A stretch of DNA of 64,000 bases from an uncultured Ardenticatenia bacterium (GTDB lineage Bacteria; Chloroflexota; Anaerolineae; 4572-78; NAK82): NCBI GenBank assembly GCA_937127125.1, contig CAKZLO010000063.1, forward strand, positions 8,185 to 72,184, written 5' to 3'. Under the pieces are notes generated by a model. It did not search any database. It saw only the letters and a list, made by a program, of their open reading frames with translations, and was not told where the DNA came from. The position numbers and the translations under genes are program-made. Below are positions 7,211 to 62,694 of the stretch, piece after piece (position 1 is the stretch's first letter; the number at the start of each line of letters is the position of its first letter).

Positions 7211-7432
7211 GACTGCACGCGAAGCGAGACACTACGCTAGTGTCTCAGTATCCTTTCGACTATGATACCCCTCTCAACGGGTCGGTGCAACCAGTGGCAT
7301 GCCTGATTCAGGCTTCCTGGCATTCCTGAGATAGTGTTCTCCATCCGGCCTGCGTTTTTCCGTGCCTGCCCGCCATTGACTATAATACCATCGTCAGACG
7401 TGTGGATTTGGGCGTGGTGAGCTCTTGTCGCC

Positions 7433-44651: not shown

Positions 44652-45536
44652 CTATTCCGCGCTCCCCTTCGCCTCAATGCCAGTGGCGGTCTCGGCAGTA
44701 TGGCCCACGAAAGGACGCAGCAGATTAGTAAACTCCATCGGCAGCACAAACTTGGTTGCCGGACCGCTGCCCAACGTCTTGAGCGTCTCCAAGTACTGCA
44801 AGCTCATTGTCTTGCCGTCTATGGTACGCGCCACAGAGTAGATCTTCTCCAGTGCCAGTGAGAAGCCTTCAGCGCGCAGGATGGCCGCTTGGCGATCGCC
44901 CTCGGCACGCAAGATAGTTGCTTGGCGTTCACCTTCGGCTACCTTGATAGCTGCCTCGCGTTGACCATCCGCTTGGGTGACAATGGCACGTCGCTCGCGC
45001 TCTGCGGCCAGCTGCCGGTTCATTGCTGCCTGCACTTCCTTCGGTGGCAAAATCTCCCGAATCTCCACTGTGGTTACTTTCACGCCCCAGCGTTCGGTCA
45101 CCTCGTCCAACTTTACACGTAGCACTTGGTTAATTTGCTCGCGCTTGGCCAGCACATCGTCCAACATAATGTCACCGATCACAGCGCGCAGAGTGGTGGT
45201 GGCGATCCCTTGTGAAGCACCAGCGAAGTTGCTCACTTGAACGACACTGCTCAGAGGGTCTACAACTTTCCAGTAGATCAAGAAATCGATATCAATGGGA
45301 GCATTGTCTTTTGTGATACAGGTCTGTTTGGGCACCTCTAGATAGACTTCGCGCAAGTCTACCCATACTGGGCGGTCAATGAATGGGATGAGCAGAACGA
45401 TACCCGGTCCTTTTGGTCCGATAGCACGTCCCAATCGGAAGACCACCAGCCGCTGATATTCGCGCACAATCTTGATGGCCGAAGTAAGCAGCCAGATTAC
45501 TACGAGGGCAATAGCCAGAATCAGAAATAGGTCCAT
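44652..45536 (-). CDS. SPFH/stomatin-like protein
   Basis: VVFRLGR, ITKDN, TTLRAVIG and AERERRA motifs. Confidence 0.93.
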   Translation of the reverse strand: MDLFLILAIALVVIWLLTSAIKIVREYQRLVVFRLGRAIGPKGPGIVLLIPFIDRPVWVDLREVYLEVPKQTCITKDNAPIDIDFLIYWKVVDPLSSVVQVSNFAGASQGIATTTLRAVIGDIMLDDVLAKREQINQVLRVKLDEVTERWGVKVTTVEIREILPPKEVQAAMNRQLAAERERRAIVTQADGQREAAIKVAEGERQATILRAEGDRQAAILRAEGFSLALEKIYSVARTIDGKTMSLQYLETLKTLGSGPATKFVLPMEFTNLLRPFVGHTAETATGIEAKGSAE

Positions 45537-45551
45537 CTCACTTCGCTCCTT

Positions 45552-46922
45552 TCATGCTGTTCGGGACTCTGTAGTTTGTTGTTTGCGCACCTTAATTCGT
45601 AATCCCTCGTGACCGACTACAACTACCTCTTCACCAGCATGGACGTTCCCTTCCACAGCAACAGCTGTCCACTGTTCGCTGGCTGCTTGCACGACACCCT
45701 GCGGCGTTAGGTCAGACACAGCAATCCCCGTGCTACCCACCGGCAGACTGATTTGCATTGCACTTGGTCGCAGTTGTGCTCGCAATCCAGCAGTTAAAAT
45801 GGTGGTAAAGAACAACACCAGCGCAGCGGTCATCCCAATCAGCAGCCAAGGATTCACCGACAGCTGCGGCATAGAGGGCTCTGGCGGCGTAAATGGACTA
45901 AACAGGAACAATGAACCGATAACGAAAGCGATTACGCCAGCAATGGTGAGCCCAAAGCCAGTTACTTTTAGGTCTAGCAGGAAAAAGATGATCGCCAATA
46001 TAATGAGTGCCACACCGCCATAGTTGACCGGCAGGCTACCGAAAGCGACAAAGGCCAGCACCAAGCAGATGGCGCCGACCACTCCGGGAATGATGGCACC
46101 TGGATTCCAGAATTCAGCGACCAAGCCAATGGTACCCAGCGACAGCAGCACATAGGCAATGTTGGGATCTACAATACCGTGCGTGACCATCTGCAGCCAG
46201 TTCATTTCGCGCTCCACGATCGGTACCCCTGCCGTGTGCAACACCACCTGTGTACCTGCCACTTCCACCGTGCGTCCTTCCAAAGCGCCTAATAACGCCT
46301 TCAGATCCACGGCGATCAAGTCTATAAAACGCTCTTCTAATGCCTGCTTTGCCGTGAAAGACTGGCTCTGACGTACCAGTTTCTCAGCTAGATCGGCATT
46401 GCGGTTGCGTTGTTCGGCGATAGCGGCTAAATAGGCAACAGCATCGTTAGTCACCTTGTCCGCTATGGTCTCCGGCATCTCCCCTTGTCCAATGTCCACA
46501 GGACGCGCGGCCCCAATGTTGGTACCCGGCGCCATAGCCGCGATGTGCGCTGCTCCGGTTATGAAGACACCCGCCGAGGCAGCACGCGCACCCGAAGGCG
46601 CCACATACACAACGACGGGTACCTTGGCATTCATGATCGTTTGCACAATGGCGCGCATGGAGGTATCCAGACCGCCAGGTGTATCCAGCTGGATCACAAC
46701 CAGCCGAGCACCTTCCTCAGTGGCCGCTTGCACCCCTTGTTCCACGTAGCCTGCCACAACAGGGTCGATGACGCCGGTGACTTTAAGCAGCACCACAGCG
46801 TCCGAAGCGCTCTGCTGGGCCAAGCCTGGGACGGCGACGATGAGGAGCACCCCTGTCCAGAGGACTCCTGCTAAGACGCGGCCTATATTTCTACTGAGCC
46901 AACCGAAGAACACCCTTTTCAT
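45552..46922 (-). CDS. nfeD: NfeD-family membrane-bound serine protease
   Basis: LDTPGG, AASAG, PGTNIGAA, TM bundle and C-terminal OB-fold; adjacent to the SPFH gene. Confidence 0.9.
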   Translation of the reverse strand: MKRVFFGWLSRNIGRVLAGVLWTGVLLIVAVPGLAQQSASDAVVLLKVTGVIDPVVAGYVEQGVQAATEEGARLVVIQLDTPGGLDTSMRAIVQTIMNAKVPVVVYVAPSGARAASAGVFITGAAHIAAMAPGTNIGAARPVDIGQGEMPETIADKVTNDAVAYLAAIAEQRNRNADLAEKLVRQSQSFTAKQALEERFIDLIAVDLKALLGALEGRTVEVAGTQVVLHTAGVPIVEREMNWLQMVTHGIVDPNIAYVLLSLGTIGLVAEFWNPGAIIPGVVGAICLVLAFVAFGSLPVNYGGVALIILAIIFFLLDLKVTGFGLTIAGVIAFVIGSLFLFSPFTPPEPSMPQLSVNPWLLIGMTAALVLFFTTILTAGLRAQLRPSAMQISLPVGSTGIAVSDLTPQGVVQAASEQWTAVAVEGNVHAGEEVVVVGHEGLRIKVRKQQTTESRTA

Positions 46923-47057
46923 TGCGTTGGCACCTCGAATTCATTCCGATGTCCCGCCCGCATACATACACACCAGTCTGTCCATACTCCATACCGTAGT
47001 GGATATTATAGCATGATTTGCACGACAGTGCCACCCAGGAGTGAAAAAGACAAAAGT

Positions 47058-47086
47058 TTGACAAAGTGCCAATGTTTCAGTATAGT
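47058..47086 (+). promoter_or_regulatory. Sigma70-type promoter of the ABC/hydantoinase operon
   Basis: TTGACA-17bp-TATAGT; a divergent TGCTATAAT for nfeD lies at 47005-47013. Confidence 0.65.
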
Positions 47087-47262
47087 GACCCATTGTGGAT
47101 TCCGCATTCTATAGTGGCTGTGCATCTCCATTGGTTGTCACAATCAAGCACCAGGATGGCAGCTATCTCGAAGGAAAGGAGGTGGAATCTAGCGAGCTTA
47201 CTTTTCTTTCTTTTGCGCCCCGTTTGACAGTTACCCATTCTACTTGAAGTAGGAGGAGAGCT

Positions 47263-50022
47263 ATGCGCAGGCACCTTTGGATCCTAACCGCTCTGTTAGT
47301 AGTGCTCTCGATGTTTATGGCGCAGTGTGCGCCAGCGGCACCGACGCCCACTGAGGCACCTAAGGCAACGGAGACTCCTACCGAGGTACCGAAGGCTACG
47401 GAGACCCCTACCGAGGCACCCAAGGCCACAGAAGTCCCTACGGAAGCTCCTGCTGCTGAGACGCCTGAAGCTACCGAAGCTGCCAAGCCGGCAGAGGGCA
47501 AGCTGAAGATCGGCTTGGTGACGGACGTGGGCAAGGTGAACGACGGCACGTTCAACCAGTTTGCTTATGAGGGCTTCACGAAAGCGGCCAAGGAATTCGG
47601 CCTCGAAAGCGCCTTCATCGAGACGCAGCAACCGACCGACTATGAGAAAAATGTTAAGCAGTTCATCGACGAAGGCTATGGGATGATCGTGACCGTCGGC
47701 TTTATGATGGGAGAGACCACCAAGAAGATGGCGGAGGCATACCCTAACGTGAAGTTCGCCATCGTGGACTATGCCTATGACCCGGTCATCCCAAATGTGC
47801 AAGGCCTGGTGTTCCGCGAGGATCAATCCGGCTTTCTGGCTGGGGCACTTGCGGGACAGATGACCAAGAGCAAAGTGGTGGGGATCGTAGCTGGTATGGA
47901 GATCCCTGCGGTCAAGAAATTCCGCAACGGCTACGAAAACGGTGTGGCTTATGTATGCCCTGACTGTAAAGTGATTGGCGTCTACATCGATAGCTTTACC
48001 GACCCAGCGCGAGGTAAGGCGGCGGCTGAAAGCCAGATCGCTGAGGGCGCGGACGTGATCTTCGGCGCAGGCGGACCGACCGGATCGGGTGCTATCCTTG
48101 GTGCTGCACAGCAAGGGATCTGGGTGATCGGTGTTGACCAGGATGAGTACCTGACCACCTTCAAGGGTGGTAAAGAGAAGGGTGCAGACAAGTTGCTGAG
48201 CAGCGCGGGCAAGCGTGTAGATGTGGCTGTCTACAACGCAGTCAAGGCGGCAGCAACGGGCACGTTCAAGGGTGGTACAATGGTTTTCGATGCTGCCTCG
48301 AACGGCATAGGATTAACCCCCTTCCACGACGCAGAGAAAGCCATTCCCGCTGAGGTGAAAGCTAAGCTGGACGAGATCTTCAAGATGATGGCCGAGGGTA
48401 AGCTCGATACGGGTGTCGATCCTGCCACGGGTGACAAAGTCGGTCCAGCCAAGGTTGTGGGTGCGGAAGCAGCATCTGCTGAAGCTCTTCCAGCTGCTGC
48501 CGAAGAGGGTGTCTGGCTGCGTGTGAGCTACGCTTGGCCATGTTACATTGATCCAGCAGTTGGGTCCGACTTCGCTAGCTCGACCGCCTTGGCTAACTTA
48601 TACGACACGCTGGTGTTCCCGAATAAAGAGGGTGGCGTTGATCCGTGGGTAGCCGAGAAGTGGGAGACCTCCTCGGATGGCAAGACTTGGACGTTCACCA
48701 TCAAGAAGGGGATCAAGTTCCACGACGGTACCGAGATGAAGGCCAGCGATGTGGCATACAGTATGAACCGTATGCTCAAAATCGGTGAGGGTTACGCCTA
48801 CCTGTTCACCGACGTCGTTGAGAGCGCTACGGCGAAGGATGACTATACGGTCGAGTTCACACTCAAGCAGCCCACGGGTCTTTTCCTGCCCAGCTTGGCA
48901 CGGCTGTACATCTTGAACGAGAAGCTGGTACGTGCCAACACCAAGAAAGAGGGTCCGTATGGTGAAGAAGGTGATTACGGGAAGGATTATCTTCTGACCC
49001 ACGATGCTGGTTCCGGCTCCTACAAGGTCAAGGAATTCCCGCTTCAAGAATACCTGCTGATGGAGAAGAACAAGGATTGGTGGGGCACCTTTGCGCCCAA
49101 TGCGCCGGACTACTACAAGATGATTGGTACTACAGAAGCTTCCACCATCCGTACCATGATGTCTAACAAGGAGCTTGAGATCACCGATCAGTGGCAGACG
49201 CTCGAGTCCTTCAAAGCTTTGGATGAACTGCCCGGCGTGGATGTTGCGGCGTACCCGAATATGACCAGCTTCTACTTCATGATCAACAATCGGCTGGCGC
49301 CCACCGATGATGTGCACTGTCGCCGTGCCATGGCTTACGCTTTTGACTATGATGCCGCTGTGAAGCTGGAGTGGCCGGGGACCAAGCCAATGGTCGGACC
49401 AGTGAACGCTGCGCTGGGAGGCCATAATCCCAATGTCACAGTGTATCGGCGCGACCTGGACAAGGCAAAAGCAGAGCTAGATCAGTGCAAGTATAAAGGT
49501 GAGCTGGACAAGTATCCGGTGCAGTTCGTCTGGATTTCAGAAGTTCCGGACGAGGAAAAATTCGCGCTGCTCTTCCAAGCCAACATGGCAGAGATTGGTA
49601 TCCCTGTAGAGATCGTCTCCTCGCCTTGGCTCTCTGTGGTGGAAAACACGTCTAAGCAGGAAACCAGTCCCCACATCGTCAGCATCTATGTCTCGTCCGA
49701 TCTGCCCGAGGCGGGTCCTATGCTGAAGCAGCGATACCACTCTAGCTCGGCAGCGACGTGGTCGCAAAATGAGTGGCTGCTTGACAAGGAGCTGGACGCT
49801 GCAATCGATGATGCACTGAGCACATTGGATCAGGCGGAGCGTTTCAAGAAGTATCAAGACATCCAGGCCAAGCTCGCGGATCTGGCTCCTTCTATCTTCG
49901 TGTATGACCAGCTGGAGAAGCATGCCTATCAGGACTACGTCGACTGGCCAGCGGCCAAGGGTGAGGTCATCCCAATGATGGGATACGACCTGCTCGCCTT
50001 CAAGATCGGTGTGAAAAAGTGA
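47263..50022 (+). CDS. Lipoprotein fusion: BMP/PnrA-like binding domain + family-5 (Dpp/Opp) binding domain
   Basis: MAQC lipobox; DGTFNQ, GADVIF and IGVDQD (BMP); LYDTLV, WTFTIKKGIKFHDG and RRAMAYAFD (SBP_5); single open frame. Confidence 0.9.
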   Translation: MRRHLWILTALLVVLSMFMAQCAPAAPTPTEAPKATETPTEVPKATETPTEAPKATEVPTEAPAAETPEATEAAKPAEGKLKIGLVTDVGKVNDGTFNQFAYEGFTKAAKEFGLESAFIETQQPTDYEKNVKQFIDEGYGMIVTVGFMMGETTKKMAEAYPNVKFAIVDYAYDPVIPNVQGLVFREDQSGFLAGALAGQMTKSKVVGIVAGMEIPAVKKFRNGYENGVAYVCPDCKVIGVYIDSFTDPARGKAAAESQIAEGADVIFGAGGPTGSGAILGAAQQGIWVIGVDQDEYLTTFKGGKEKGADKLLSSAGKRVDVAVYNAVKAAATGTFKGGTMVFDAASNGIGLTPFHDAEKAIPAEVKAKLDEIFKMMAEGKLDTGVDPATGDKVGPAKVVGAEAASAEALPAAAEEGVWLRVSYAWPCYIDPAVGSDFASSTALANLYDTLVFPNKEGGVDPWVAEKWETSSDGKTWTFTIKKGIKFHDGTEMKASDVAYSMNRMLKIGEGYAYLFTDVVESATAKDDYTVEFTLKQPTGLFLPSLARLYILNEKLVRANTKKEGPYGEEGDYGKDYLLTHDAGSGSYKVKEFPLQEYLLMEKNKDWWGTFAPNAPDYYKMIGTTEASTIRTMMSNKELEITDQWQTLESFKALDELPGVDVAAYPNMTSFYFMINNRLAPTDDVHCRRAMAYAFDYDAAVKLEWPGTKPMVGPVNAALGGHNPNVTVYRRDLDKAKAELDQCKYKGELDKYPVQFVWISEVPDEEKFALLFQANMAEIGIPVEIVSSPWLSVVENTSKQETSPHIVSIYVSSDLPEAGPMLKQRYHSSSAATWSQNEWLLDKELDAAIDDALSTLDQAERFKKYQDIQAKLADLAPSIFVYDQLEKHAYQDYVDWPAAKGEVIPMMGYDLLAFKIGVKK
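47347..47451 (+). repeat. About 3.5 tandem 30-bp repeats encoding PTE(A/V)PKATE(T/V)
   Basis: cccactgaggcacctaaggcaacggagact / cctaccgaggtaccgaaggctacggagacc / cctaccgaggcacccaaggccacagaagtc. Confidence 0.85.
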
Positions 50023-50045
50023 TGTGAGCTTTTGATGTTCGACTT

Positions 50046-50081
50046 GGTCCCCGAGAGGCCTTAGAATCGCTCTCGGGGACC
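50046..50081 (+). promoter_or_regulatory. Intercistronic hairpin after the binding-protein gene (probable mRNA stabiliser)
   Basis: 12-bp stem GGTCCCCGAGAG/CTCTCGGGGACC with no U tract. Confidence 0.6.
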
Positions 50082-50105
50082 GATCTCGATTGTCAGAGAA
50101 TTGCA

Positions 50106-51134
50106 ATGAGACTGGTCATCTTCATCCTCAAGCGAGCACTGCATTCCATTTTTGTGCTGCTTGGCCTCTCTGTGGTGATCTTTGCCATTTCACGTGTCCT
50201 TCCCGGGGACCCGGCACGCATGGCAGTAGGTGCCAGAGCACCCCAATGGGTCGTGGACAATTTGCGCGCGCAGATGCACCTTGATGAGCCGTTGTATGTT
50301 CAATATGGCTACTGGCTGATCGACGCCTTACAGGGTAAGTTTGGCATTTCCCTGGTCACGCGTCGCGAGGTAGCCGAAGACATCAAGGAGTTCTTCCCGG
50401 CTACCTTCGAGCTGGCTTTGTTTGCCGGGATCTTGATGGGTGGACTTGGTATCCTATTAGGCACCATTTCGGCACGCCACAAGGACAAATGGATAGACAA
50501 CGTTGTGCGTGTCCTTTCTTATCTAGGTGTGGTGACCCCAGCATTCGTATTCGCGATTATATTCATGCTTGTGTTTGGCTACTGGCTAAAGTGGTTGCCT
50601 ACTATTGGTCGTCTCAGCGAGGGTCTGACCCGTCCGCCTGTGATCACCGGACTGATGACCATTGACGCATTGCTGGCTGGTGACCTGGTTGTCTTTTGGG
50701 ATGCTCTGAAGCACATTGTACTGCCGGCTATTGCCCTGGCCATGGGGGGCCTAGCGCAAGAAGCACGCATCACGCGCGCGACGATGTCGGACAATCTCAC
50801 TAAGGACTACATCGCCGCGGAACGAGCGCTGGGTATACCGGAGCGTGTTATCATGGGCAAGTATCTGCTCAAACCCTCGCTCATACCGACGATCTCTATT
50901 CTGGGCCTTGACTTCGCCGGTACACTGAGCAGCGCTTTCCTGGTGGAGCTGATCTTCAACTGGCCAGGCATATCACGCTATGGCATCAATGCCATGTTGC
51001 GTAAGGACTTAAACGCCATCGCAGCTGTGATTCTGGTGCTGGGTGTTGTCTTCATCGTGGTCAACATCATAGTAGATATCGTGGTCGCGTATCTCGACCC
51101 GCGGATTCGTCTCAGTGCTGAAAGGAGCGAGTGA
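50106..51134 (+). CDS. dppB: Dpp/Opp ABC transporter permease B
   Basis: PGDPA, FPATFELA, ELIFNWPG and LDPRIR motifs. Confidence 0.92.
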   Translation: MRLVIFILKRALHSIFVLLGLSVVIFAISRVLPGDPARMAVGARAPQWVVDNLRAQMHLDEPLYVQYGYWLIDALQGKFGISLVTRREVAEDIKEFFPATFELALFAGILMGGLGILLGTISARHKDKWIDNVVRVLSYLGVVTPAFVFAIIFMLVFGYWLKWLPTIGRLSEGLTRPPVITGLMTIDALLAGDLVVFWDALKHIVLPAIALAMGGLAQEARITRATMSDNLTKDYIAAERALGIPERVIMGKYLLKPSLIPTISILGLDFAGTLSSAFLVELIFNWPGISRYGINAMLRKDLNAIAAVILVLGVVFIVVNIIVDIVVAYLDPRIRLSAERSE

Positions 51135-51135
51135 C

Positions 51136-52080
51136 GTGACCAAAGTGATGGGAGACTGGGTATCCGAACTGGGAGGCAGAGCAGAATCGGCTACCTCGAT
51201 AAGTTGGCGGGAGCTGCAACGGCGCAGCCGTCGCGAAAACATCGGCCGCGCTTGGTACAAGTTTTCGCGCAATCCACTATCGGTAGCTGGACTGGCTATC
51301 GTCCTGACAATCGTTTTCCTGGCCATTTTTGCCCCTTACGTAACGCCTTATCCTCATCACGCCGGCCCCTTCACCGATTTCGAAAACGCTAAATTGCCTC
51401 CTAACCTGAAGTACCTCTTTGGTACTGACACGATTGGACGCGACATCCTCACGCGGGTGATCTTTGGTTTCCAGGACGCCCTGCTGATGGGCATTGTGGT
51501 GTTGGCTTTGGTGGTGCCCCCGGGAGTGTTACTCGGTCTGGTGGCTGGCTACTACCAGGGCACGTGGATAGATACAATTATCATGCGCATTACCGATATC
51601 TTCTTGGCGGTGCCGCCGCTTATTCTCGCTTTGGCAATTGCCTCTGTGCTCAAACCTAATCTGATGAACTCGATGATGGCTGTGTCGCTCATGTGGTGGC
51701 CGTGGTACGCGCGGCTGGTCTATGGTCTCACAAGTCAACTGCGTAATGAGTATTTTGTGAAATCAGCGGAGACAATCGGTGCAAGCAAAGCACATATTCT
51801 CTTCCGCGAGATTTTGCCAAACTGCGTCTCTCCCATCTTCACAAAAATGAGTTTGGATATGGGATGGGTCATTCTGATCGGCTCGTCACTTAGCTTCGTT
51901 GGTTTGGGGGTGCAGCCTCCTAAACCGGGGTTGGGCACAATGGTGGCCGATGGCGCGCGCTATCTGCCTGACCAATGGTGGATCCCAGTCTTTCCGGCTT
52001 TGGGCATTGTGGTGATCGTGCTGGGCTTCAATCTCCTGGGCGACGGATTGCGCGATCTACTTGCAGCGGAAGAGGCGTAA
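51136..52080 (+). CDS. dppC: Dpp/Opp ABC transporter permease C
   Basis: FGTDTIGRD, LSFVGLG and FNLLGDGLRD motifs; start approximate. Confidence 0.92.
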   Translation: MTKVMGDWVSELGGRAESATSISWRELQRRSRRENIGRAWYKFSRNPLSVAGLAIVLTIVFLAIFAPYVTPYPHHAGPFTDFENAKLPPNLKYLFGTDTIGRDILTRVIFGFQDALLMGIVVLALVVPPGVLLGLVAGYYQGTWIDTIIMRITDIFLAVPPLILALAIASVLKPNLMNSMMAVSLMWWPWYARLVYGLTSQLRNEYFVKSAETIGASKAHILFREILPNCVSPIFTKMSLDMGWVILIGSSLSFVGLGVQPPKPGLGTMVADGARYLPDQWWIPVFPALGIVVIVLGFNLLGDGLRDLLAAEEA

Positions 52081-52087
52081 TTGCGAA

Positions 52088-53068
52088 ATGAATACTCCTC
52101 CTCTGCTTGAAGTCCGCAATTTGCAAGTGCATTTCAGGGTGTTTGGTGGTTATCTTAAGGTATTAGATGGCGTCAACTTAGTCGTACGCGCCGGCGAAAA
52201 AGTGGGCCTGGTGGGCGAATCGGGCTGTGGTAAAACCACTACGATGAAGGCTATTTTGCGAATACTGCCTGAACCGCCCGCGCAGATCGTAGGAGGCCAC
52301 GTATTGTTCCGCGGGAAAGACGTGTTGAAGATGCGCCCTCAGGAGTTGCGTCGACTACGCGGTCGTGGCATTTCGATGGTTTTTCAAGACCCTACTGCAG
52401 CTTTAAACCCTGTATTCACGATTGGACAACAACTGGGAGATGTTATCCGTTATTCACACAGTGACGGAAGGGTGGACGCTGGACAAATCCGATTAAAGGC
52501 TCTGCAAGCTCTGAAGGAAGTTGCGCTGGCAGATCCTGAGAGGCTGCTGGATAGCTATCCTATTCAACTAAGTGGGGGCATGCGACAGAGAGTCTGTATC
52601 GCAATGGCACTGGCTACGCAACCGGAGTTGTTGATCGCCGATGAGCCAGGCACCTCTCTGGACGTAACCATCCAGGATCAGATCCTGCGGTTGCTGCACA
52701 ATCTAGTAGTGGAGCGCAACACTTCTGTCATTCTTATCACGCATACGCTAGGAGTGGTGCGTGAGGTGACAGACCGGGTATATGTTATGTATGCTGGCAC
52801 CATTGTCGAGTCGGCGCCCACTAAGGTCCTGTTTGCAAATCCAATGTTCCCTTACACACGCGGCCTGATGCAATCGGTGCCCCGCCTTTCGGGTGGCGGA
52901 GTGGCCGAAGGGATACCGGGCCGTATACCCAACTATCTTAATCCACCCACTGGATGTCGTTTTCATCCGCGATGTCCCCACGTTATGGAAGTTTGTAGAC
53001 ATGAGAAACCCCCTGTATTTACGGTGGGCGAGGAGCACTACGTCGCCTGTTATCTCTATGCGTCATAG
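52088..53068 (+). CDS. dppD: Dpp/Opp ABC transporter ATPase D
   Basis: GESGCGKT, LSGGMRQ, ADEP and GCRFHPRC motifs. Confidence 0.93.
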   Translation: MNTPPLLEVRNLQVHFRVFGGYLKVLDGVNLVVRAGEKVGLVGESGCGKTTTMKAILRILPEPPAQIVGGHVLFRGKDVLKMRPQELRRLRGRGISMVFQDPTAALNPVFTIGQQLGDVIRYSHSDGRVDAGQIRLKALQALKEVALADPERLLDSYPIQLSGGMRQRVCIAMALATQPELLIADEPGTSLDVTIQDQILRLLHNLVVERNTSVILITHTLGVVREVTDRVYVMYAGTIVESAPTKVLFANPMFPYTRGLMQSVPRLSGGGVAEGIPGRIPNYLNPPTGCRFHPRCPHVMEVCRHEKPPVFTVGEEHYVACYLYAS

Positions 53069-53089
53069 CACTGTGAGGTCGCGCAGCGG

Positions 53090-54091
53090 ATGACCCCTAT
53101 TCTAGAATATAAGAACCTCAAGAAGTACTTCACCGTCGGACATCGTGGCTTGCTAAGACGCGAGCCAATCACGGTCAAGGCCGTGGACGGTGTGTCGTTC
53201 GTGATCAATAAGGGTGAAGTGTTTGGTCTGGTAGGCGAGTCTGGCTCAGGCAAAAGCACAGTCGCATATACAACTATTGGAATGTACCGACCCACTTCAG
53301 GGGCGATCGAGTTTCAGGGAGAGAGTCTCTTCACTAAAGAAGGCAAGCGCCCTCGACACATCAAGAAGGAAATCCAAATTGTCTTCCAGGACCCAGGCTC
53401 GTCTCTGAATCCGCGCCGGAGCGTGAAAGAAATTCTGGAACTGCCGCTCAGCATCCATCAGCCGGCCAAGAAGCACATTGGGCGTGTTGCCGAGCTATTG
53501 GAGATGGTAGAGCTTCCAGTAGATTATATGTACAAGTACCCTCACGCACTGAGCGGAGGCGAGAAACAGATTGTGGCGATCGCCCGAGCGTTGGCAACCG
53601 AGCCTTCTTTCATTATTCTCGACGAGCCTACTTCTGCTCTGGATGTCTCTATCCAGGGAAAGATTATCAACCTGTTATTGCGTTTGAGGCAGGAGTTCCA
53701 CCTCTCGTATTTGTTCATAACACACGACTTGAGCCTAATGCGCAATGTCGCCTCGCGTGTCGCGATCATGTATCTGGGCAAGATCTGCGAAGTCGCGGAG
53801 GCAAGTGAGTTCTTTCGTAACCCCAAGCATCCTTACACGCAGATGCTATTGTCTTCCATCCCTGTGGTTTCGGAGGAGGAAGAGAAGCTCAAGCCAAAGC
53901 GTGTACAATCGCGTGGCGAGATACCCAGCCCGGTTAATATTCCCAGCGGATGCAGCTTTCACTTGCGCTGTCCGTACAAGATGGATATTTGTCCACGCGT
54001 TGACCCAGAGATGGTGGACACTGGTGAAGGACATTACGTGCGTTGTCATCTGTACCCAGTTCAGGAAAACAGCAGACCTGTTGCAGTGTAG
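53090..54091 (+). CDS. dppF: Dpp/Opp ABC transporter ATPase F
   Basis: GESGSGKS, LSGGEKQ, LDEP and GCSFHLRC motifs. Confidence 0.93.
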   Translation: MTPILEYKNLKKYFTVGHRGLLRREPITVKAVDGVSFVINKGEVFGLVGESGSGKSTVAYTTIGMYRPTSGAIEFQGESLFTKEGKRPRHIKKEIQIVFQDPGSSLNPRRSVKEILELPLSIHQPAKKHIGRVAELLEMVELPVDYMYKYPHALSGGEKQIVAIARALATEPSFIILDEPTSALDVSIQGKIINLLLRLRQEFHLSYLFITHDLSLMRNVASRVAIMYLGKICEVAEASEFFRNPKHPYTQMLLSSIPVVSEEEEKLKPKRVQSRGEIPSPVNIPSGCSFHLRCPYKMDICPRVDPEMVDTGEGHYVRCHLYPVQENSRPVAV

Positions 54092-54135: not shown

Positions 54136-56187
54136 ATGAGAGTAGCCACCGACATTGGGGGCACCTTCACTGATTTGGTGTATCTAGATGAGCAAACCGG
54201 GCAGATCGGCGTGGCCAAGGCATCTACCACGCCAGCTAACTTTGCGCAGGGGGTGATTGACACGCTGCACAAAGCGGCCATTAGGGTGCCTGACACAACT
54301 TTCTTCGTACATGGTTCCACGGTAATTATCAACGCATTAACGGAGCGCAAGGGAGCCAAGACAGCTTTGATCACTACCCGAGGATTTCGCGACGTCTTGG
54401 AAATCACCCGTGCCAACCGCCCCGACCTATACAATATGTATTATACCAAGCCGAAGCCGTTTGTGCCGCGTTATCTCCGCCTAGAGGTCCGCGAGCGGAT
54501 GAACTACAAGGGCGAGGTCTTGGAACCTCTGCACGAGGAGGATGTACGCCGAGCGGCTGAGCTCTGTCGCAAAGAAAAAGTAGAAGCAATTGCTGTCTGC
54601 TTCTTGCATTCGTACGCCAATCCGGCCCATGAAATTCGCTGTGGTGAGATTCTGCGCGAAATGGTCCCGGAAATCCCGGTGACACTTTCCCATGAGATCA
54701 CCCAGGAATGGCGCGAATATGAGCGTACCAACACAGCAGTACTGAACAGCTATGTGATGCCTGTTGCCAAGTTCTATCTAGCGAATCTGGAGAGGAACCT
54801 GGCCGACCTGGGAATGGGCAAAGTGTATCATATTATGCAATCCAACGGTGGCACAGCGACTTTCGATATGGGCAAGCGTGTGCCGATCAACACGGTCGAA
54901 TCAGGTCCTGTGGCAGGCGTGATTGGGGCAGCCGTGATCGGCAATTTGATTGGCGAACGCAATGTGATTTCCCTCGACGTGGGTGGGACGACAGCAAAGA
55001 CATCGCTGGTCGAAAATGGCACACCACGCATCACCACCGAATACAGGATCGAGTGGCGTCGTGACTACGCGGGTTATCCTATCCTGGCTCCGACGGTTGA
55101 CATTGTCGAGATCGGCGCCGGGGGTGGTTCTATCGCCTGGGTGGATAACGCTGGTGCCCTAAAGGTAGGACCAGTGAGTGCCGGTGCTGACCCGGGACCA
55201 GCGTGTTATGGGCGTGGCGGTGACAAACCCACCGTGACGGATGCCAACGTCCTGGCAGGTCGCATCAACCCGGAGTATTTCTTGGGCGGTGAAATTCGCC
55301 TTGACGTGGAAAACGCCCGACGCGCTATGAAACCCATTGCCGACCATTTCAAGGTGAACGTGGAAGAAGCTGCGATGGGTGTGATTCGATTGGCCGACGC
55401 TAATATGATAAACGCGCTCAAGCTGGTATCAGTGCGGCGAGGTTATGATCCTCGCGACTTCGTGTTAATTGCCTTTGGCGGCGGGGGTGCTATGCACGCG
55501 GGTGCGCTGGCGCGGGAGCTGCGTGTCAAGGAGGTGCTCGTTCCGAACGAGCCAGCTGTCTTTTCCGCTTGGGGAATGCTGATGACCGACCTACGGCAAG
55601 ATTTCATCCGCACGCGTATCCAGCGCGCCGACCAGATTTCCAGCTCAGCCCTTACTGAGATCTATCAGGAAATGGAGGCGGTAGCGCGGCAAAACCTGCT
55701 CGATCAGCACATACCGGAAGAACGCATGATGTTCCAACGCTTTGCTGACATGCGTTACCTGGGCCAAGAGCATACAGTAAAGGTACCCATTCCGGGGGGA
55801 ATCATCACCGAAGAACAGATGCCCGAGATCTGTGAACGCTTCCACCGGCTGCATGAGCACACCTATACATTCCGCCTGGACACCCTGATCGAATTTGTTA
55901 ACTATCACGTAACCGGTTTCGGAGTTGTGGAGAAGCCCCAGCTCAAGAAGCTGGATGGAGCTCGGGGCAGCTTGGAGGCAGCACGCAAAGGAACACGACG
56001 TGTCAACTTCGATGAGCTGGGATACCACGACGCACCCATTTATGAGCGCAGTCTCTTGCCGGTCGGGGTCTCTATCGCGGGTCCTCTGGTTATTGAGGAA
56101 CCAGCGTCCACTACAGTGGTGTTCCCAGATCAGACGGTATACCGTGACGAATACGGGTTCTTGCGCATCCACACCACGCGCGACTGA
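54136..56187 (+). CDS. hyuA: Hydantoinase/oxoprolinase A (ATPase) subunit
   Basis: DIGGTFTD, SGPVAG, DVGGTT, GAGGGS, SAGADPGP and FGGGG motifs. Confidence 0.93.
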   Translation: MRVATDIGGTFTDLVYLDEQTGQIGVAKASTTPANFAQGVIDTLHKAAIRVPDTTFFVHGSTVIINALTERKGAKTALITTRGFRDVLEITRANRPDLYNMYYTKPKPFVPRYLRLEVRERMNYKGEVLEPLHEEDVRRAAELCRKEKVEAIAVCFLHSYANPAHEIRCGEILREMVPEIPVTLSHEITQEWREYERTNTAVLNSYVMPVAKFYLANLERNLADLGMGKVYHIMQSNGGTATFDMGKRVPINTVESGPVAGVIGAAVIGNLIGERNVISLDVGGTTAKTSLVENGTPRITTEYRIEWRRDYAGYPILAPTVDIVEIGAGGGSIAWVDNAGALKVGPVSAGADPGPACYGRGGDKPTVTDANVLAGRINPEYFLGGEIRLDVENARRAMKPIADHFKVNVEEAAMGVIRLADANMINALKLVSVRRGYDPRDFVLIAFGGGGAMHAGALARELRVKEVLVPNEPAVFSAWGMLMTDLRQDFIRTRIQRADQISSSALTEIYQEMEAVARQNLLDQHIPEERMMFQRFADMRYLGQEHTVKVPIPGGIITEEQMPEICERFHRLHEHTYTFRLDTLIEFVNYHVTGFGVVEKPQLKKLDGARGSLEAARKGTRRVNFDELGYHDAPIYERSLLPVGVSIAGPLVIEEPASTTVVFPDQTVYRDEYGFLRIHTTRD

Positions 56188-56216: not shown

Positions 56217-57965
56217 ATGGCACGCAATGGGAATGGGGTTGACCCTTTCACCCTCGAGATCATCAGCGAAAGCTTGCGCGCAATCGGCGACGAGATGTTC
56301 GTCACAATGCAGCGCACGAGTATGAGCGTTATCATCTATGAGACGCTCGACTATGCGACCGGCCTGACCGATGCCCAGGGGCGACTCATCACTCAGGGCA
56401 ATGGGGTCACGCTTTTCCTCGGCACGCTTGACTATGGTGTGCGCAGCGTGCTGGAAAAGTTCGGCTATGATGGGCTAAAACCGGGCGATATCGTGATCAC
56501 GAACGATCCTTACGGCGGCGGAGGAACCCACCTCTCCGATGTATCGTTGATCATGCCCATCTTCTACGACGGCAAAATTGTCGCCTTCGCTGCCAACAAG
56601 GGACACTGGACAGAGGTCGGTGGAATGGCAGCGGGTAGCTGGACCACTGATTCCACCGAAATCTATCAGGAAGGCCTGCAATTCCCAGTCATCAAGATAT
56701 TTGAGGAAGGCAAGATCAACCAAGGCTTGGTGGAACTCATCCGAGCGAACGTGCGTACGCCGGACATGAGCATTGGCGATATGATGGCTCAGGCGGCATC
56801 ATTGCGCATCGCTGAGCGACGTTTCCGCGAACTATGCGACAAATACGGCGTCGAAACGGTTACGGCGGGTGTTGAGAAATTGATGAACGACAGTGAAACG
56901 CTGATCCGCCAGGAGCTGCGCAAGATCCCGCCAGGTGTGTATGAAGCGGAAGATTACATTGACGACGACGGAATCTCGGAAGGGCCATTCAAGGTTCAGG
57001 TAAAAGTTACCGTCACACCGGATAAGCTCATCTGCGACTACACCGGCAGCCATCCTCAAGTGTTGGGACCGGTAAACGCTGGATGGACAGCCCTCGTCGC
57101 TGCTGCGCGCGCCATTTTCCTCGCGCTGACGGATCCATCCATCCCTACCAACGATGGGTGTTTCCGACCGTTGGAGATCATTTGCCCCCCGCGAACTATC
57201 TTCACGGCTGAACGGCCTGCCGCAGTATCCACTTACTGGGAGACGATGTTGTACGCGGCAGACCTGATATGGAAGGCGATGGCACCCGTGTTGCCACACC
57301 GCTTGCCTGCAGGACATTTTCTCAGTGTATGTGCTCCTATCATCGCGGGTTTGCATCCTGACACGGGTTCGCTGTTCATCCTTGTTGAGCCGAGCGCAGG
57401 CGGTTGGGGTGCCGGATCAACCAAAGACGGCGAGAACGGGATGTTCTGTGTGGGCGATGGGGAGACCTACAATGTCCCCGTGGAAGTATGTGAGCAACGT
57501 TACGGGGTGCTGGTCGAGCAATACGCTTACGACATTACAGAAGGCGGCGCCGGCAAATTCCGTGGTGGGCGTGGTATGGTGCGCGATTATCGTATTCTGG
57601 CCGACAGCGCGCAGCATACAGGTACCTTCGGACGCTTTAAGTTCCTGCCGTGGGGTATGGCTGGTGGTAGCCCCGGTTCTCGCAACTACATGAAGATCAT
57701 CTGGGCAGACGGACGCGAGCCGTTGGTGGTGGGCAAAATCGCACGACTACCCGTGAAGAAAGGGGATCTTGTGCGTCTCGTGACCGGCACCGGCGGAGGC
57801 TATGGTGACCCTTGTGAGCGCCCGGTGGAGAAAGTGGTCGAGGATGTCCGGGATGGCTATATCACCCCCGAAATGGCACGTGATCAATACGGTGTGGTGG
57901 TTGACCCGGAGACGTTGCAGGTGCTGGAGCTGGTGGGCAAACGCGCACAAAAACGGGCAGGGTAA
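56217..57965 (+). CDS. hyuB: Hydantoinase/oxoprolinase B subunit (1 of 3)
   Basis: ETLDY, NDPYGGGGTHLSD, HWTEVGG, YQEGL and GGGYGDP motifs. Confidence 0.93.
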   Translation: MARNGNGVDPFTLEIISESLRAIGDEMFVTMQRTSMSVIIYETLDYATGLTDAQGRLITQGNGVTLFLGTLDYGVRSVLEKFGYDGLKPGDIVITNDPYGGGGTHLSDVSLIMPIFYDGKIVAFAANKGHWTEVGGMAAGSWTTDSTEIYQEGLQFPVIKIFEEGKINQGLVELIRANVRTPDMSIGDMMAQAASLRIAERRFRELCDKYGVETVTAGVEKLMNDSETLIRQELRKIPPGVYEAEDYIDDDGISEGPFKVQVKVTVTPDKLICDYTGSHPQVLGPVNAGWTALVAAARAIFLALTDPSIPTNDGCFRPLEIICPPRTIFTAERPAAVSTYWETMLYAADLIWKAMAPVLPHRLPAGHFLSVCAPIIAGLHPDTGSLFILVEPSAGGWGAGSTKDGENGMFCVGDGETYNVPVEVCEQRYGVLVEQYAYDITEGGAGKFRGGRGMVRDYRILADSAQHTGTFGRFKFLPWGMAGGSPGSRNYMKIIWADGREPLVVGKIARLPVKKGDLVRLVTGTGGGYGDPCERPVEKVVEDVRDGYITPEMARDQYGVVVDPETLQVLELVGKRAQKRAG

Positions 57966-58017: not shown

Positions 58018-59799
58018 GTGCCAACTCCCATGCGGTGTGATCCCTTCACGGCCGAGATCATAGCGGAAGCATTCCGTGCTTCCGCCGAAGAGATGTTCCT
58101 CACTCTCAAACGCACAAGCCAAAGCCCCATCATTTACGAAGTGCTCGACTGTGCCTGTGGACTGACAACGCCTGAAGGCCACCTGGTGGCTGAAGCGGAG
58201 GGTATCCCGGGTTTCATTGGGTGTTTGAGCTTCGGGGTGCGCTCGATCCTGCGCAAGTTCGGCCCAGCCCATATATGCCCTGGTGACATCTTCATCACCA
58301 ACGACCCTTATGAAGGGGGAGGAACCCATCTCTCCGATGTCACGCTGGTAGCTCCTGTGTTCTACGACGAAGAGCTGGTTGCCTTCGTTGCCAACAAGGC
58401 GCATTGGACCGAGATGGGAGGGATGGCAGCAGGCAGCTGGACCACCGACGCGACTGAGATCTTTCAGGAGGGTCTGCAGCTACCCGGACTCAGGATCTTT
58501 CACCGAGGACAGCCCGACCGAGCTCTGCTTGACCTCATTGAAGCCAACGTACGCCTCCCCACTATGACCTTGGGCGACTTATACGCGTGTGCAGCCTCCC
58601 TAAGGGTGGGTGAAACAAGCTTCGTCGAAATATGCCGTAAGTATGGGGTGCAGGCGGTGCGGGACGCAATGCAAAGCATCCTAGCACGCGGCCGCAGAAC
58701 AGCATGGGCGTGTGTGCAACAGATACCCTATGGTAGCTACTACGCTGAAGACTGGATTGATGACGATGGCATAGGCGAGCAACCCTTGCACGTTTGCGTG
58801 CGTGTTGTCGTTGACGAACAAGGTTTCACCGCTGATTTCACCGGTGCACCGCCTCAGACGATTGGCCCCATCAACACGACAAGGGTGGGATTGGAAGTCT
58901 CGTGCCGCGAGATCTTCAAAGCAATCGTGGCACCGCACGAACCAAATAATGAGGGTTTGTTCGATCCACTGCGGGTTGTCTGTCCAGATGGCACCATTTT
59001 CACTGCTCGGCGTCCAGCTCCCGTTTCGATATACTGGGAAACAGGTGCTTACGCAAGCGAGCTGATCTGGCGTGCACTCTACCCGGTGGCGAGTGACCGA
59101 TTGCCGGTGGGCCACTCCTTGAGTGTTTGCGGCACAATTCTCAGCGGCATCGATGGCGAGAGAGGACCATTTGTGTTAGTTGAGCCTCAGGCAGGGGGAT
59201 GGGGAGCGACCTGCAATCGCGATGGTGAATCCGGACTGGTAGTCGCAGGCGATGGCGAGACGTATGTGATGCCAGTCGAAGTATGCGAACAACGTTATCC
59301 GGTATTGGTGGAACAGTATCGCTTTAACACTGGGCCGGCGGGAGCCGGTCAATTCCGGGGTGGCTTTGGTCTTGTGCGCGACTATCGCATTCTATGTGCA
59401 CGCGCCGAGCTGACCGCCACGTTTGGCCGCCATCGCTTCCCTCCATGGGGGTACGCAGGTGGTGCAAGTGGGTCGCCCAATACAATCGAAATCTACTATG
59501 ATAGTGACAGCGTGGATGTGGGCAAACCGACGTTGCGCGCTGGCAAGCTGGCACGTTGTCCGTTACGGCGCCACGACTTAGTACGTTTGATCACTGGCGT
59601 GGGTGGCGGTTACGGTGACCCATTGACGCGAGATGTGCAGCGTGTCTGGGAAGATGTCCGCAACGAGTTCCTCCGACCCGAGGAGGCAGCGAGCGTTTAC
59701 GGCGTGGTATTGACTCCAGATGGGAGCGCAGTAGACCTTGCAGCGACCACAGCGCTGCGTGAGGCGCGTCGTCAATCTCATGGCCAGAGGTACCCATGA
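58018..59799 (+). CDS. hyuB: Hydantoinase/oxoprolinase B subunit (2 of 3)
   Basis: EVLDC, NDPYEGGGTHLSD, HWTEMGG and GGGYGDP motifs; start 58018 or 58030. Confidence 0.92.
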   Translation: MPTPMRCDPFTAEIIAEAFRASAEEMFLTLKRTSQSPIIYEVLDCACGLTTPEGHLVAEAEGIPGFIGCLSFGVRSILRKFGPAHICPGDIFITNDPYEGGGTHLSDVTLVAPVFYDEELVAFVANKAHWTEMGGMAAGSWTTDATEIFQEGLQLPGLRIFHRGQPDRALLDLIEANVRLPTMTLGDLYACAASLRVGETSFVEICRKYGVQAVRDAMQSILARGRRTAWACVQQIPYGSYYAEDWIDDDGIGEQPLHVCVRVVVDEQGFTADFTGAPPQTIGPINTTRVGLEVSCREIFKAIVAPHEPNNEGLFDPLRVVCPDGTIFTARRPAPVSIYWETGAYASELIWRALYPVASDRLPVGHSLSVCGTILSGIDGERGPFVLVEPQAGGWGATCNRDGESGLVVAGDGETYVMPVEVCEQRYPVLVEQYRFNTGPAGAGQFRGGFGLVRDYRILCARAELTATFGRHRFPPWGYAGGASGSPNTIEIYYDSDSVDVGKPTLRAGKLARCPLRRHDLVRLITGVGGGYGDPLTRDVQRVWEDVRNEFLRPEEAASVYGVVLTPDGSAVDLAATTALREARRQSHGQRYP

Positions 59800-61596: not shown

Positions 61597-62694
61597 ATGA
61601 ACGAGCTCGAACAGCGAATGAACATCCTGCGTGCCGCAATGGCCAACGCTGATGTAGACATAGTCGCGATTGCCCCCAGTGATATGATGCGCTACCTGGC
61701 AGGGTATGCCTCCTACCCGGACGAGCGAGTTTGCATGCTGCTGGTCTCACAACACACAGCCGCTGCGGTCGTGCCAGCCCTCAACGCTGGGGAATGGCGT
61801 GCGCATACCAATCTGCCATTGCATATCTGGGCGGATAACGAGGGTCCACAAACAGCCCTGTCCGCTGCTCTGTCAGCCCTCGATGTTTCCCGCATACGAC
61901 GGCTAGCCGTAGACGGCGAGATGCGCGCCGATTTCTTGCTCCCTTTGCTGAAAGCGGCAGGCAATCCAGAAGTCATCACTCTTGCAGGTTTGGGTGCTCC
62001 ACTGAGGTTGTGTAAATCCTCCACCGAGATCGAGTTGTTGCAGGCCGCGGCGGCACAGGCTGACCGTGCTATGCAAGCTGCCATCGAAGCGTGCCGTCCA
62101 GGTGTCACCGAAGCACAGGTTGCTTGGGCAGCCGAGCAAGCATTCCGAATGAATGGGGCAGACTACGTCTGTTTCACACTGGTCGCGTCCGGACCGAATA
62201 GCGCTTTTCCTCATCATCGTAGCGGACAACGTGTGCTGCAGCTCGGTGATGCGATCATCATTGACATTGGTGCCTCGCTCAACCACTACAAATCGGACAT
62301 TACGCGCGTAGTACATCTGGGGGAACCGTCGCCGGAGTTCCTAAAAGCGTACGAGGCCGTCTTGCGAGCTAACGAAGCCGCTCGTGCTGTCGTCCGACCC
62401 GGGGTGTCCGCGGCAACGGTTGATCGGGCCGCGCGCACAGTGCTGGAAACAGCTGGCTATGGCGAGTACTTTGTTCACCGTACCGGGCACGGCCTGGGGC
62501 TGAGCACCCATGAGCCGCCTTGGATCATGGCTGGCAATGAGCAACCGCTAGAAGAGGGGATGGTGTTCAGCATCGAGCCGGGCGTGTATCTGCCCGGTCA
62601 GTTCGGCATACGCATTGAGGACATCGTAGTGGTCACCGCTTCGGGTGCCCGCGTTCTAACTGGTTTCGATCATCAGCTGACCGTCAAACGCTAG
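61597..62694 (+). CDS. pepQ: Xaa-Pro dipeptidase/aminopeptidase (M24B)
   Basis: All metal ligands present: IDIG, SDITR, GHGLG..HE, IEPG, RIED. Confidence 0.88.

Follow-up and report, generated by a model that had tools for sequence, protein, structure and literature searches.

A lipoprotein joining Bmp and SBP_bac_5 domains in an uncultured Ardenticatenia bacterium, a candidate receptor for two ABC importers

ATP-binding cassette (ABC) importers are usually described as the association of one receptor family with one translocator family, and the fused receptor domains known so far belong to a same family and feed one pump. The present work concerns a gene of 919 codons found in a 64,000-nucleotide stretch of DNA from an uncultured Ardenticatenia bacterium (contig CAKZLO010000063.1, positions 8,185 to 72,184 of the forward strand; this whole stretch is hereafter called the window). 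The gene encodes a lipoprotein carrying two complete solute-binding domains of unrelated families, Bmp (PF02608) and SBP_bac_5 (PF00496), and lies upstream of genes for a DppBCDF-type importer.

PnrA, BmpD/BmpA, and Lbp are Bmp-family nucleoside-binding lipoproteins of CUT2-type ABC importers. The window protein is like them in its PF02608 fold family, its lipoprotein signal, and its nucleoside-contact positions. However, PnrA, the Bmp proteins and Lbp are single-domain receptors of about 320-360 residues, whereas the Bmp domain here forms the N-terminal half of a 919-residue chain, is joined to a member of a different receptor family, and is encoded on a different contig from the CUT2 genes. 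With DppA, OppA, and NikA, the window protein shares the PF00496 domain, the DppB/C/D/F genes with oligo_HPY ATPases that follow, and the existence of unfused orthologues in the same operon. In contrast to these receptors, its SBP_bac_5 half (SBP5 half) has no signal peptide or lipobox of its own, relies on the anchor of the Bmp half, and reaches no equivalog cut-off.

Receptors made up of several domains, and receptors acting at a distance from their translocator genes, have also been described. Excerpts of the reports on GlnPQ from Lactococcus lactis (PMC8025302) and on OpuA (PMC11065425) present several binding domains in one chain, with flexible linkers near the membrane and differing specificities. 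In these excerpts, the domains come from a single family, are attached to a permease, and supply that translocator; the window protein, which shares with the GlnPQ type at least two receptor domains in one polypeptide, has domains of two unrelated families, is not fused to the permease to be served, and presumably works with two importers. AdcA from Streptococcus pneumoniae, as described in part of PMC7858048, is a lipoprotein receptor in which a short linker connects two domains, a cluster A-I solute-binding protein and a ZinT-like domain. There, the second domain is accessory, acts on the same ligand and transporter and forms a stable interface, whereas the window protein has two complete receptors of different families and a disordered, fast-evolving linker. 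Finally, DppA1-A5 of Pseudomonas aeruginosa illustrate, in the available text of PMC4206461, how receptors encoded apart can serve the DppBCDF translocator in trans; these are separate proteins of one family, as opposed to one protein of two families here. Single-domain receptors of the PnrA/BmpD/Lbp and DppA types and tandem same-family receptors are therefore known separately, and what sets the window protein apart is the presence of two receptor families on one lipoprotein. The literature search, which left aside domain-architecture databases and the wider literature, returned nothing on receptor fusions across families, Bmp+SBP5 included. The accessible portion of PMC9602780 gives both Pfam identifiers in its methods and contains there none of the words fusion, fused, tandem, or multidomain; a bioRxiv match for "fused substrate-binding" concerns LacI regulators and was rejected. 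The original prediction would have lost its point if the architecture had been common and already characterised; the Bmp-SBP5 order is in fact rare, and no paper on it was found.

The open reading frame (47263..50022, + strand) starts with ATG and is open throughout. Pfam assigns the Bmp domain to residues 86-361 (193.1 bits, cut-off 24.1, profile positions 6-275 of 301) and the SBP_bac_5 domain to residues 459-829 (227.9 bits, cut-off 32.4, profile positions 2-365 of 368). The two domains do not overlap, and their E-values are both below 1e-56, so that a chance match is no issue. The elements of the gene are the following.

47058..47086, + strand: promoter-like site TTGACA-17-TATAGT (11/12), about 175 bp 5' of the start codon; consensus match only
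47263..47328, + strand: signal peptide with lipobox-like M-A-Q-C (Cys22), from the motif; model helix at residues 2-19
47329..47496, + strand: disordered Pro/Thr/Glu/Ala stalk, residues 23-78, with decapeptide repeats, from repeat finding and the predicted local distance difference test (pLDDT)
47497..48447, + strand: Bmp domain, PnrA-Lbp-like and predicted to bind nucleosides, residues 79-395, from PF02608, PDB relatives, and contact positions
48448..48537, + strand: Ala/Glu-rich inter-domain linker, residues 396-425, holding the fusion crossover at about residues 403-414
48538..50022, + strand: SBP_bac_5 domain (cluster C, Dpp/Opp/Nik type), residues 426-919 and stop codon, from PF00496, orthology, and fold

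Pfam, repeat finding, and translation thus recover every part read from the letters in the original prediction, namely the open 919-residue frame, the lipobox-like Cys22, the repeat stalk, the complete Bmp domain, the Ala/Glu linker, and the complete family-5 domain. Cys22 is retained in at least 90% of the 41 rows of the alignment used for folding (A2, which replaced an earlier alignment, A1, dropped for placing Bmp-only rows on the SBP5 half). The residue preceding the lipobox cysteine is usually Gly, Ala, or Ser, and the Gln found here is atypical. The stalk contains a 30-nt tandem repeat at 47353-47441, in 2.5-3.0 copies. Within residues 396-425, the linker has no stop codon and no Cys, hence no second lipobox. 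Neither the reading frame nor the fold model indicates a membrane domain beyond the signal peptide in the 919-residue protein.

The AlphaFold2 model of the protein (mean pLDDT 80.6, predicted template modelling score, pTM, 0.61) contains two folded domains, with a pLDDT above 90 in the SBP5 half and below 50 in the stalk (residues 21-78) and in the linker (residues 402-412). Set against packing of the AdcA type, the low linker values and the pTM come with predicted ligand classes that differ between the halves. We propose that one lipid anchor and a flexible stalk would carry two independent solute-binding domains, with a flexible linker between them.

The fusion is conserved. The search of related genomes covered 41 genomes, that of the window being G000. 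Full-length fusions are present in four other species-level genomes of the genus, G001 (92%), G002 (95%), G003 (95%), and G005 (one 938-residue frame); G004, which is 82% complete and is left out of this count, has residues 58-404 in a 406-residue frame. The architecture recurs in two protein clusters from other sources, P0001 (91%, 938 residues, 3 contigs) and P0002 (80%, 857 residues), the latter under the source name "peptide/nickel transport system substrate-binding protein," which overlooks half the protein. Precomputed domains of P0001 include PF27998.1 between Bmp and SBP_bac_5, where the local Pfam copy reported no such family. The length of the stalk differs between congeners (G001 931, G005 933, and G003 940 residues in all), with the same A-Q-C motif in all three. 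The approximate ratios of nonsynonymous to synonymous substitution (dN/dS) between the window and G001, G003, and G005 are 0.014-0.020 for the Bmp half, 0.013-0.023 for the SBP5 half, and 0.17-0.29 for the linker. The fusion is real and old, and purifying selection has acted on both halves from the divergence of the genus onwards. The idea of the Bmp half as a decaying passenger is rejected, its dN/dS being equal to that of the SBP5 half.

The closest solved relative of the Bmp half is Lbp from Clostridium thermocellum (PDB 7x0r, E 1e-63), followed by Treponema PnrA/TmpC (2fqw, 3e-39), with Borrelia BmpA and BmpD behind. In the part of the Lbp study available (PMC9601137), crystal density was fitted by the authors as guanosine with PnrA-like contacts, and the transporter mutant still grew on laminaribiose. 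For PnrA, an excerpt of PMC7093131 names Asp27, Ser28, Ser86, Phe87, Phe186, and two stacking phenylalanines, the base being contacted by Asp/Asn. By alignment, D88, F97, N98, and F245 of the window protein correspond to PnrA Asp27, Phe36, Asn37, and Phe186 (an offset of 15 is implied by these residues). V89 occupies the position of Ser28, and F147/M148 that of the Ser86/Phe87 loop, differing as in BmpD. D169, D292, and K317 align with PnrA Asp108, Asp238, and Lys260, of which we take Asp and Lys to contact the ribose. Alignment A5, of 21 Bmp rows, has K317 in every row and D169, F245, and D292 conserved at 90% or more. As the contact residues are kept, both in the alignment to PnrA and across these rows, the domain, whose PF02608 match lies above the curated cut-off, is predicted to have a pocket of the nucleoside type.

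A Bmp gene in or beside a CUT2-type operon is found for the G006 orthologue and for clade relatives in G110, G291, and G211, but not in the window, where the neighbours are DppBCDF. G000 is a 3.73-Mb draft in 85 contigs, 95% complete, with 35 matches to PF02653 (CUT2/HAAT permease). None of these is inside the window, for which the earlier statement that only DppBCDF (50106-54091) is encoded there holds. The genome has five Bmp domains in four proteins. Contig C34 carries a CUT2 operon made up of a tandem-ABC ATPase, a Bmp-permease (749 residues, Bmp at the N-terminus of a PF02653 permease), and a second permease; it also encodes a single exported Bmp lipoprotein of 431 residues, adjoining a phosphoribosyltransferase. 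Contig C32 (L006:8159-14997) encodes a tandem Bmp-Bmp lipoprotein of 727 residues, adjoining adenine deaminase. The window Bmp is 50% identical to the permease-fused Bmp of C34 and 24-30% identical to the three other Bmp domains of the genome. The tandem protein of C32 belongs to a different Bmp subfamily and also adjoins another amidohydrolase and an aminotransferase, a purine-salvage context without adjacent permease genes. Only one further permease pair, on contig C74, resembles the C34 permeases (38% and 34% identity). The C74 operon (L010:8035-11758) consists of an ATPase and two permeases with no adjacent Bmp or receptor gene; upstream of it are a phage-type integrase gene (L010:4515-5738, - strand) and a 223-residue open reading frame without Pfam family.

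Three Bmp-permease genes were delineated. They abut or overlap the ATPase gene, and no signal peptide or membrane helix precedes the Bmp domain.

L007:8531-10780: Bmp-permease gene of G000, on C34
L023:12962-15076: Bmp-permease gene of G006
L030:10974-13166: Bmp-permease gene of G110

The Bmp-permease proteins of G000, G006, G110, and P0237 begin with the Bmp domain itself and lack a signal peptide, and the unfused paralogous permease has a K/R-rich N-terminal tail ahead of the homologous first membrane helix. The permease-fused Bmp domain is predicted from these features to be cytoplasmic. Without a signal peptide and on that side of the membrane, it would leave the C34 operon with no exported receptor, and the window protein would then be the sole exported Bmp of that subfamily found in the G000 assembly. 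The permease-fused domain may be a nucleoside sensor for trans-inhibition, not a receptor.

Gene order in relatives links the window-type Bmp module to this CUT2 system. In G006, genes for a Bmp-PhnD protein, a PhnC-like ATPase, a PhnE-like permease, a CUT2 ATPase (79% identical to that of G000), a Bmp-permease, and a second permease follow each other. G110 has the same order with an inserted PMT-like gene. A PhnD-Bmp-Bmp protein of 991 residues is encoded directly upstream of a CUT2 ATPase and a pair of unfused permeases in G291, and an SBP_bac_8-Bmp protein of 753 residues directly upstream of CUT2 ATPase and permease genes in G211. All four examined contigs that hold both genes (4/4) have a hetero-fused Bmp lipoprotein as receptor gene of a C34-type CUT2 system, and the CUT2 ATPases of these four genomes are 70-79% identical to the C34 ATPase. 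The gene inserted in G110 (L030:7876-9375, between the PhnE-like permease and CUT2 ATPase genes) encodes a PMT/TMEM260-like protein O-mannosyltransferase and raises the question of whether the Pro/Thr-rich lipoprotein stalks are O-glycosylated.

Docking of the window Bmp domain (316 residues) on the two C34 permease cores (375 and 304 residues), each with an alignment, gave a median score of 0.68, against 0.34 for the best control. The mark that was passed is reached by 116 of 157 solved complexes and by 2 of 215 mismatched pairs. The runs share at least 90% of contacts, with a partner pLDDT of 80-82, and both Bmp lobes touch the permease face, including the loop after the first transmembrane helix. 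This model supports the view that the window Bmp keeps a docking surface for the C34 permeases.

The SBP5 half is 65-70% identical over 494 residues to unfused lipoproteins heading DppBCDF-HyuA-HyuB in G014 and G006, and preceding DppB in G008; 108 of the 120 matches listed in the protein search are SBP5-only proteins. Similarity to the solved DppA, HbpA, and NikA is weak (best 5e-31). No named family-5 equivalog was obtained, since all 13 NCBIfam matches of family-5 type are below cut-off, the best being nikA with 130.4 vs. 393 bits. The family domain is complete, a translocator of the DppBCDF/OppBCDF type is adjacent, and the half corresponds to none of DppA, OppA, NikA, GsiB, SapA, CntA, and the other named equivalogs. 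From its orthology, it would be the ordinary receptor of the adjacent DppBCDF, on which it is predicted to dock. No intrinsic-terminator-like site was found on the + strand from the receptor gene to dppB; the sole such site in 46800-50300 is intragenic and on the - strand. The downstream genes are listed below.

50106-51134, + strand: DppB, Pfam BPD_transp_1
51115-52080, + strand: DppC, Pfam BPD_transp_1 (OppC_N among the Dpp permease matches)
52061-53068, + strand: DppD, Pfam ABC_tran and oligo_HPY
53090-54091, + strand: DppF, Pfam ABC_tran and oligo_HPY
54136-56187, + strand: HyuA, from Pfam; best NCBIfam name caprolactamase, below cut-off
56217-57965, + strand: first HyuB paralogue, from Pfam; best name caprolactamase, below cut-off
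58018-59799, + strand: second HyuB paralogue, same basis
59796-61487, + strand: third HyuB paralogue, same basis
61597-62694, + strand: M24 PepQ-like dipeptidase, from Pfam; NCBIfam PepQ Xaa-Pro dipeptidase, below cut-off
62893 to the window end (63999), open, + strand: proline dehydrogenase, from Pfam; Thermus-type proline dehydrogenase (ProDH), below cut-off

The NCBIfam names of the Hyu, M24, and ProDH genes (caprolactamase alpha/beta, PepQ, Thermus-type ProDH) and of the CUT2 parts are all sub-threshold. The same downstream gene order is found in G001. As judged from these neighbours, the cargo of the SBP5 half and Dpp is probably made of proline-containing or lactam-type peptides, for the hydantoinase/caprolactamase-like, PepQ-like, and ProDH enzymes; the downstream enzymes have no nucleoside link. 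HyuA, the three HyuB, the PepQ-like M24 protein, and ProDH could act in one pathway on proline-containing lactams or on cyclic dipeptides. The three HyuB paralogues are 53-62% identical to each other's G001 orthologues, and a single HyuB match occurs in G014 and G006 within the stretch fetched. The unfused SBP5 orthologue of G008 (L027 = G008:C1:58000-77999, open reading frame at about 6100-7964) has an N-terminal LysM-like insert, and P0068 shows PF01476 and PF00496 in its precomputed domains; N-terminal add-ons to the SBP5 receptor vary by genus.

The two halves can be traced to different sources. Outside the genus, the best matches to residues 1-411 of the window protein are proteins of 697 and 698 residues from the sister genera G006 and G007, 75-83% identical including signal peptide and stalk, in which Bmp is followed by a PhnD-like Phosphonate-bd domain according to Pfam. 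The window protein tracks these Bmp-PhnD proteins to "...LDTGVDPxTGD" (about residue 403) and, from about residue 414, the stalk found in unfused SBP5 lipoproteins, whose signal peptide and lipobox are still in place. This crossover places the join in the linker and implies that the SBP5 half lost its own anchor. Neither the PhnD-like domain nor its PhnE-like permease has a tblastn match in G000 (E<1e-5). As donor, we envisage the ancestral signal-stalk-Bmp-linker module of a hetero-fused lipoprotein of the Bmp-PhnD type, a type that is still encoded next to a CUT2 operon by two sister genera and by one genome further removed. The module would have been joined, within the linker, to the mature part of an SBP5 lipoprotein, replacing its signal peptide and lipobox. 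A fusion of two formerly adjacent genes is rejected: the unfused SBP5 has its own signal and lipobox, no Bmp match was found around it (G014, G006, and G008 regions searched), and the Bmp orthologues are already fused to PhnD.

A tree was built for 109 Bmp domains taken from 70 proteins, by a quick IQ-TREE search under LG+G4; branch support is SH-aLRT alone, and the P0121 copies have long branches. The window domain falls with P0001 (98) and P0002, and G007 enters in a clade of four (98). The next group outwards (94) also takes in the Bmp-PhnD domain of G006 and P0133, which has a single domain; the sister of this group (83) contains PhnD-Bmp and Bmp-Bmp proteins. The SBP5-Bmp proteins P0270 and P0215, as well as P0266, are in a different clade with a support of 100. 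Bmp+SBP5 combinations, being found in separate clades, arose more than once.

The reading that we favour, with moderate confidence, is that of two independent receptors on one anchor. The C-terminal SBP_bac_5 domain would deliver peptides in cis to the adjacent DppBCDF importer, and the N-terminal Bmp domain would bind nucleosides and dock in trans on a CUT2-type ABC importer, most likely that of C34. The original prediction had left a choice between service to a transporter in trans and delivery of a small heterocycle, plausibly a hydantoinase substrate, to the peptide transporter. The former is now preferred, given a C34 CUT2 operon without exported receptor gene, a sister-genus Bmp fusion beside that operon, the nucleoside pocket residues, and the docking result. 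The latter is unsupported: elsewhere, the partners of this Bmp module include PhnD-like, SBP_bac_3, and SBP_bac_8 domains, among others, and in other genera the same Dpp-hydantoinase operon is already served by an unfused SBP5.

Several points weigh against the two-importer reading. Ligand and transport are predictions for an organism known from assemblies alone. G000 also contains C74, a second Bmp-type CUT2 system without a receptor of its own, and encodes two further exported Bmp lipoproteins (the tandem of C32 and the single one of C34), so that receptors and translocators may be paired otherwise; a clue from G008 is weak, as the Bmp beside its further CUT2 system is 34% identical to the C32 type vs. 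27% to the window type. The cytoplasmic placement of the permease-fused Bmp comes from crude hydropathy and a charge count. G291 and G211 have no adjacent translocator for the non-Bmp partner, so gene order assigns one translocator per domain only in G006 and G110. With unrelated proteins as controls, the docking pass cannot separate Bmp paralogues or the two CUT2 systems; the job used three chains and custom alignments, unlike the calibration, and the pass may reflect likeness to solved receptor-translocator complexes. AlphaFold2 confidence is only moderate for the Bmp half (block means 40-90), a consequence of its coverage by no more than 8 of the 41 rows aligned. The dS values underlying the selection estimates, 0.85-1.7, are near saturation. 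Finally, an advantage of the fusion can only be conjectured, shared anchoring or export and coupled expression of two uptake routes being possibilities.

The alternative that survives best, though unlikely, is that Bmp binds nucleosides at the surface without delivering them to a translocator, and instead works in sensing, in retention (a "sponge"), or in spacing and anchoring its partner receptor. Bacillus subtilis Med is a Bmp-family lipoprotein with a regulator role rather than that of a transport receptor, and the matching PDB entry 2hqb, named "Transcriptional activator of comK gene," is among the PDB matches of the Bmp half. A surface role would also suit the fusion of the same subfamily to fasciclin modules and its presence in giant multi-domain surface proteins (P0121, P0266), the absence of CUT2 genes adjacent to the fusion gene in G000, and the LysM-like insert of the G008 orthologue, which suggests envelope-related add-ons. 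It accounts poorly, however, for hetero-fused Bmp genes standing directly upstream of CUT2 genes (G291, G211) or beside CUT2 operons (G006, G110), for the conserved pocket residues and the docking of both lobes on the permease pair (0.68 vs. 0.34), and for a Bmp dN/dS equal to that of the transport-linked SBP5 half.

Slightly less probable again is that Bmp serves in trans the second CUT2 system, C74, instead of C34, or both. This importer has no Bmp gene beside it and an integrase gene upstream. Yet in four other genomes the window Bmp clade accompanies CUT2 operons that share 70-79% ATPase identity with C34, and the G008 comparison (34% to the C32 type, 27% to the window type) also points away from C74, weakly.

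There is a slim chance that both domains cooperate on DppBCDF, Bmp handing over a second small ligand or allosterically gating the docking of SBP5. Only the covalent linkage and the co-transcription with DppBCDF and the hydantoinase-type enzymes speak for it, together with the precedent of AdcA, where, in the excerpt of PMC7858048, an accessory domain feeds the solute-binding protein. Bmp receptors, in contrast, pair with PF02653-type permeases in the gene order of G006, G110, G291, and G211, whereas the Dpp permeases are of the PF00528 type; sister genera have the orthologous Bmp module joined to another receptor, of the PhnD-like kind; the same operon is served, with no Bmp involved, by SBP5 orthologues that are unfused; and the pocket is of the nucleoside type, with a disordered, fast-evolving linker. 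An assembly or gene-calling artefact joining two genes, which a draft of 85 contigs might invite, can be dismissed, as the same uninterrupted frame is found in G001, G002, G003, and G005 and, from other sources, in P0001 and P0002, the linker has neither stop nor second lipobox, and both halves are under purifying selection.

On the other side of the fusion gene, an SPFH/Band 7 and NfeD gene pair (window 44652-46922, - strand) is divergently oriented. The 340-bp spacer between this pair and the fusion gene contains one promoter-like site per direction; four such sites were found in the region, vs. a shuffle mean of 2.1. Rfam gave no match at gathering thresholds in window positions 40000-64000.

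Beyond the genus, this Bmp subfamily is often fused in the class. It is found at E<=1e-50 in 214 of 301 sampled genomes of the class, and, in the list of 150 matches ranked by likeness to the window (123 further matches lie beyond), 57 stop-free frames of at least 560 residues were counted by hand; among the matches listed, window-type frames (924-1025 residues, 95-100% identity) are present only in the genus. A Pfam scan of 35 longer multi-domain candidates among the best 150 representatives (50% clustering) revealed Bmp repeated two, three, or eight times (3060 residues) and Bmp combined with SBP_bac_3, SBP_bac_8/1, Phosphonate-bd, Peripla_BP_6, or a PF02653 permease. Bmp and SBP_bac_5 occur together in three other arrangements (P0270, P0215, P0266), and one to three fasciclin domains, of the cell-adhesion type, are N-terminal to a Bmp of the same subfamily in P0207, P0213, P0225, P0256, P0259, and P0009. 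The longest chains include P0121 (3060 residues), with its eight Bmp domains, and P0266 (3105 residues), with Bmp, Peripla_BP_6, two SBP_bac_5, DUF11, and PKD domains. On the Bmp tree, the partner label needs at least 15 changes (106 labelled rows).

Of 31 multi-Bmp proteins, 21 have all their Bmp copies closest to another copy of the same chain, and 10 contain a pair of copies with at least 90% identity; two P0009 copies are identical over kept columns. Near-identical tandem copies are exemplified by P0009, P0158, P0177, P0021, P0031-P0033, P0150, P0055, and P0216. These data point to recurrent recent intragenic duplication or concerted evolution. A bolder picture, which we put forward tentatively and hold to be doubtful as a whole, is that the Bmp module is a mobile cassette in the class, repeatedly duplicated in tandem, often near-identically, and grafted onto at least five other solute-binding families. 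The result would be a lipid-anchored "fishing line" serving at least two ABC importers of different structural types. On this view, the window protein would exemplify these dual receptors, its CUT2 importer would have no other exported receptor, and the permease-fused Bmp would be a cytoplasmic nucleoside sensor for trans-inhibition.

If one protein indeed serves two importers, the assignment of receptors to translocators from gene neighbourhood would fail in this lineage, and the expression of peptide and nucleoside uptake routes would be coupled. The protein would also offer a natural system for the effects of tether length, stoichiometry, and competition between receptor domains on transport. 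The recurrent shuffling and near-identical tandem duplication of the Bmp module provide a clean case of extracytoplasmic domain mobility.

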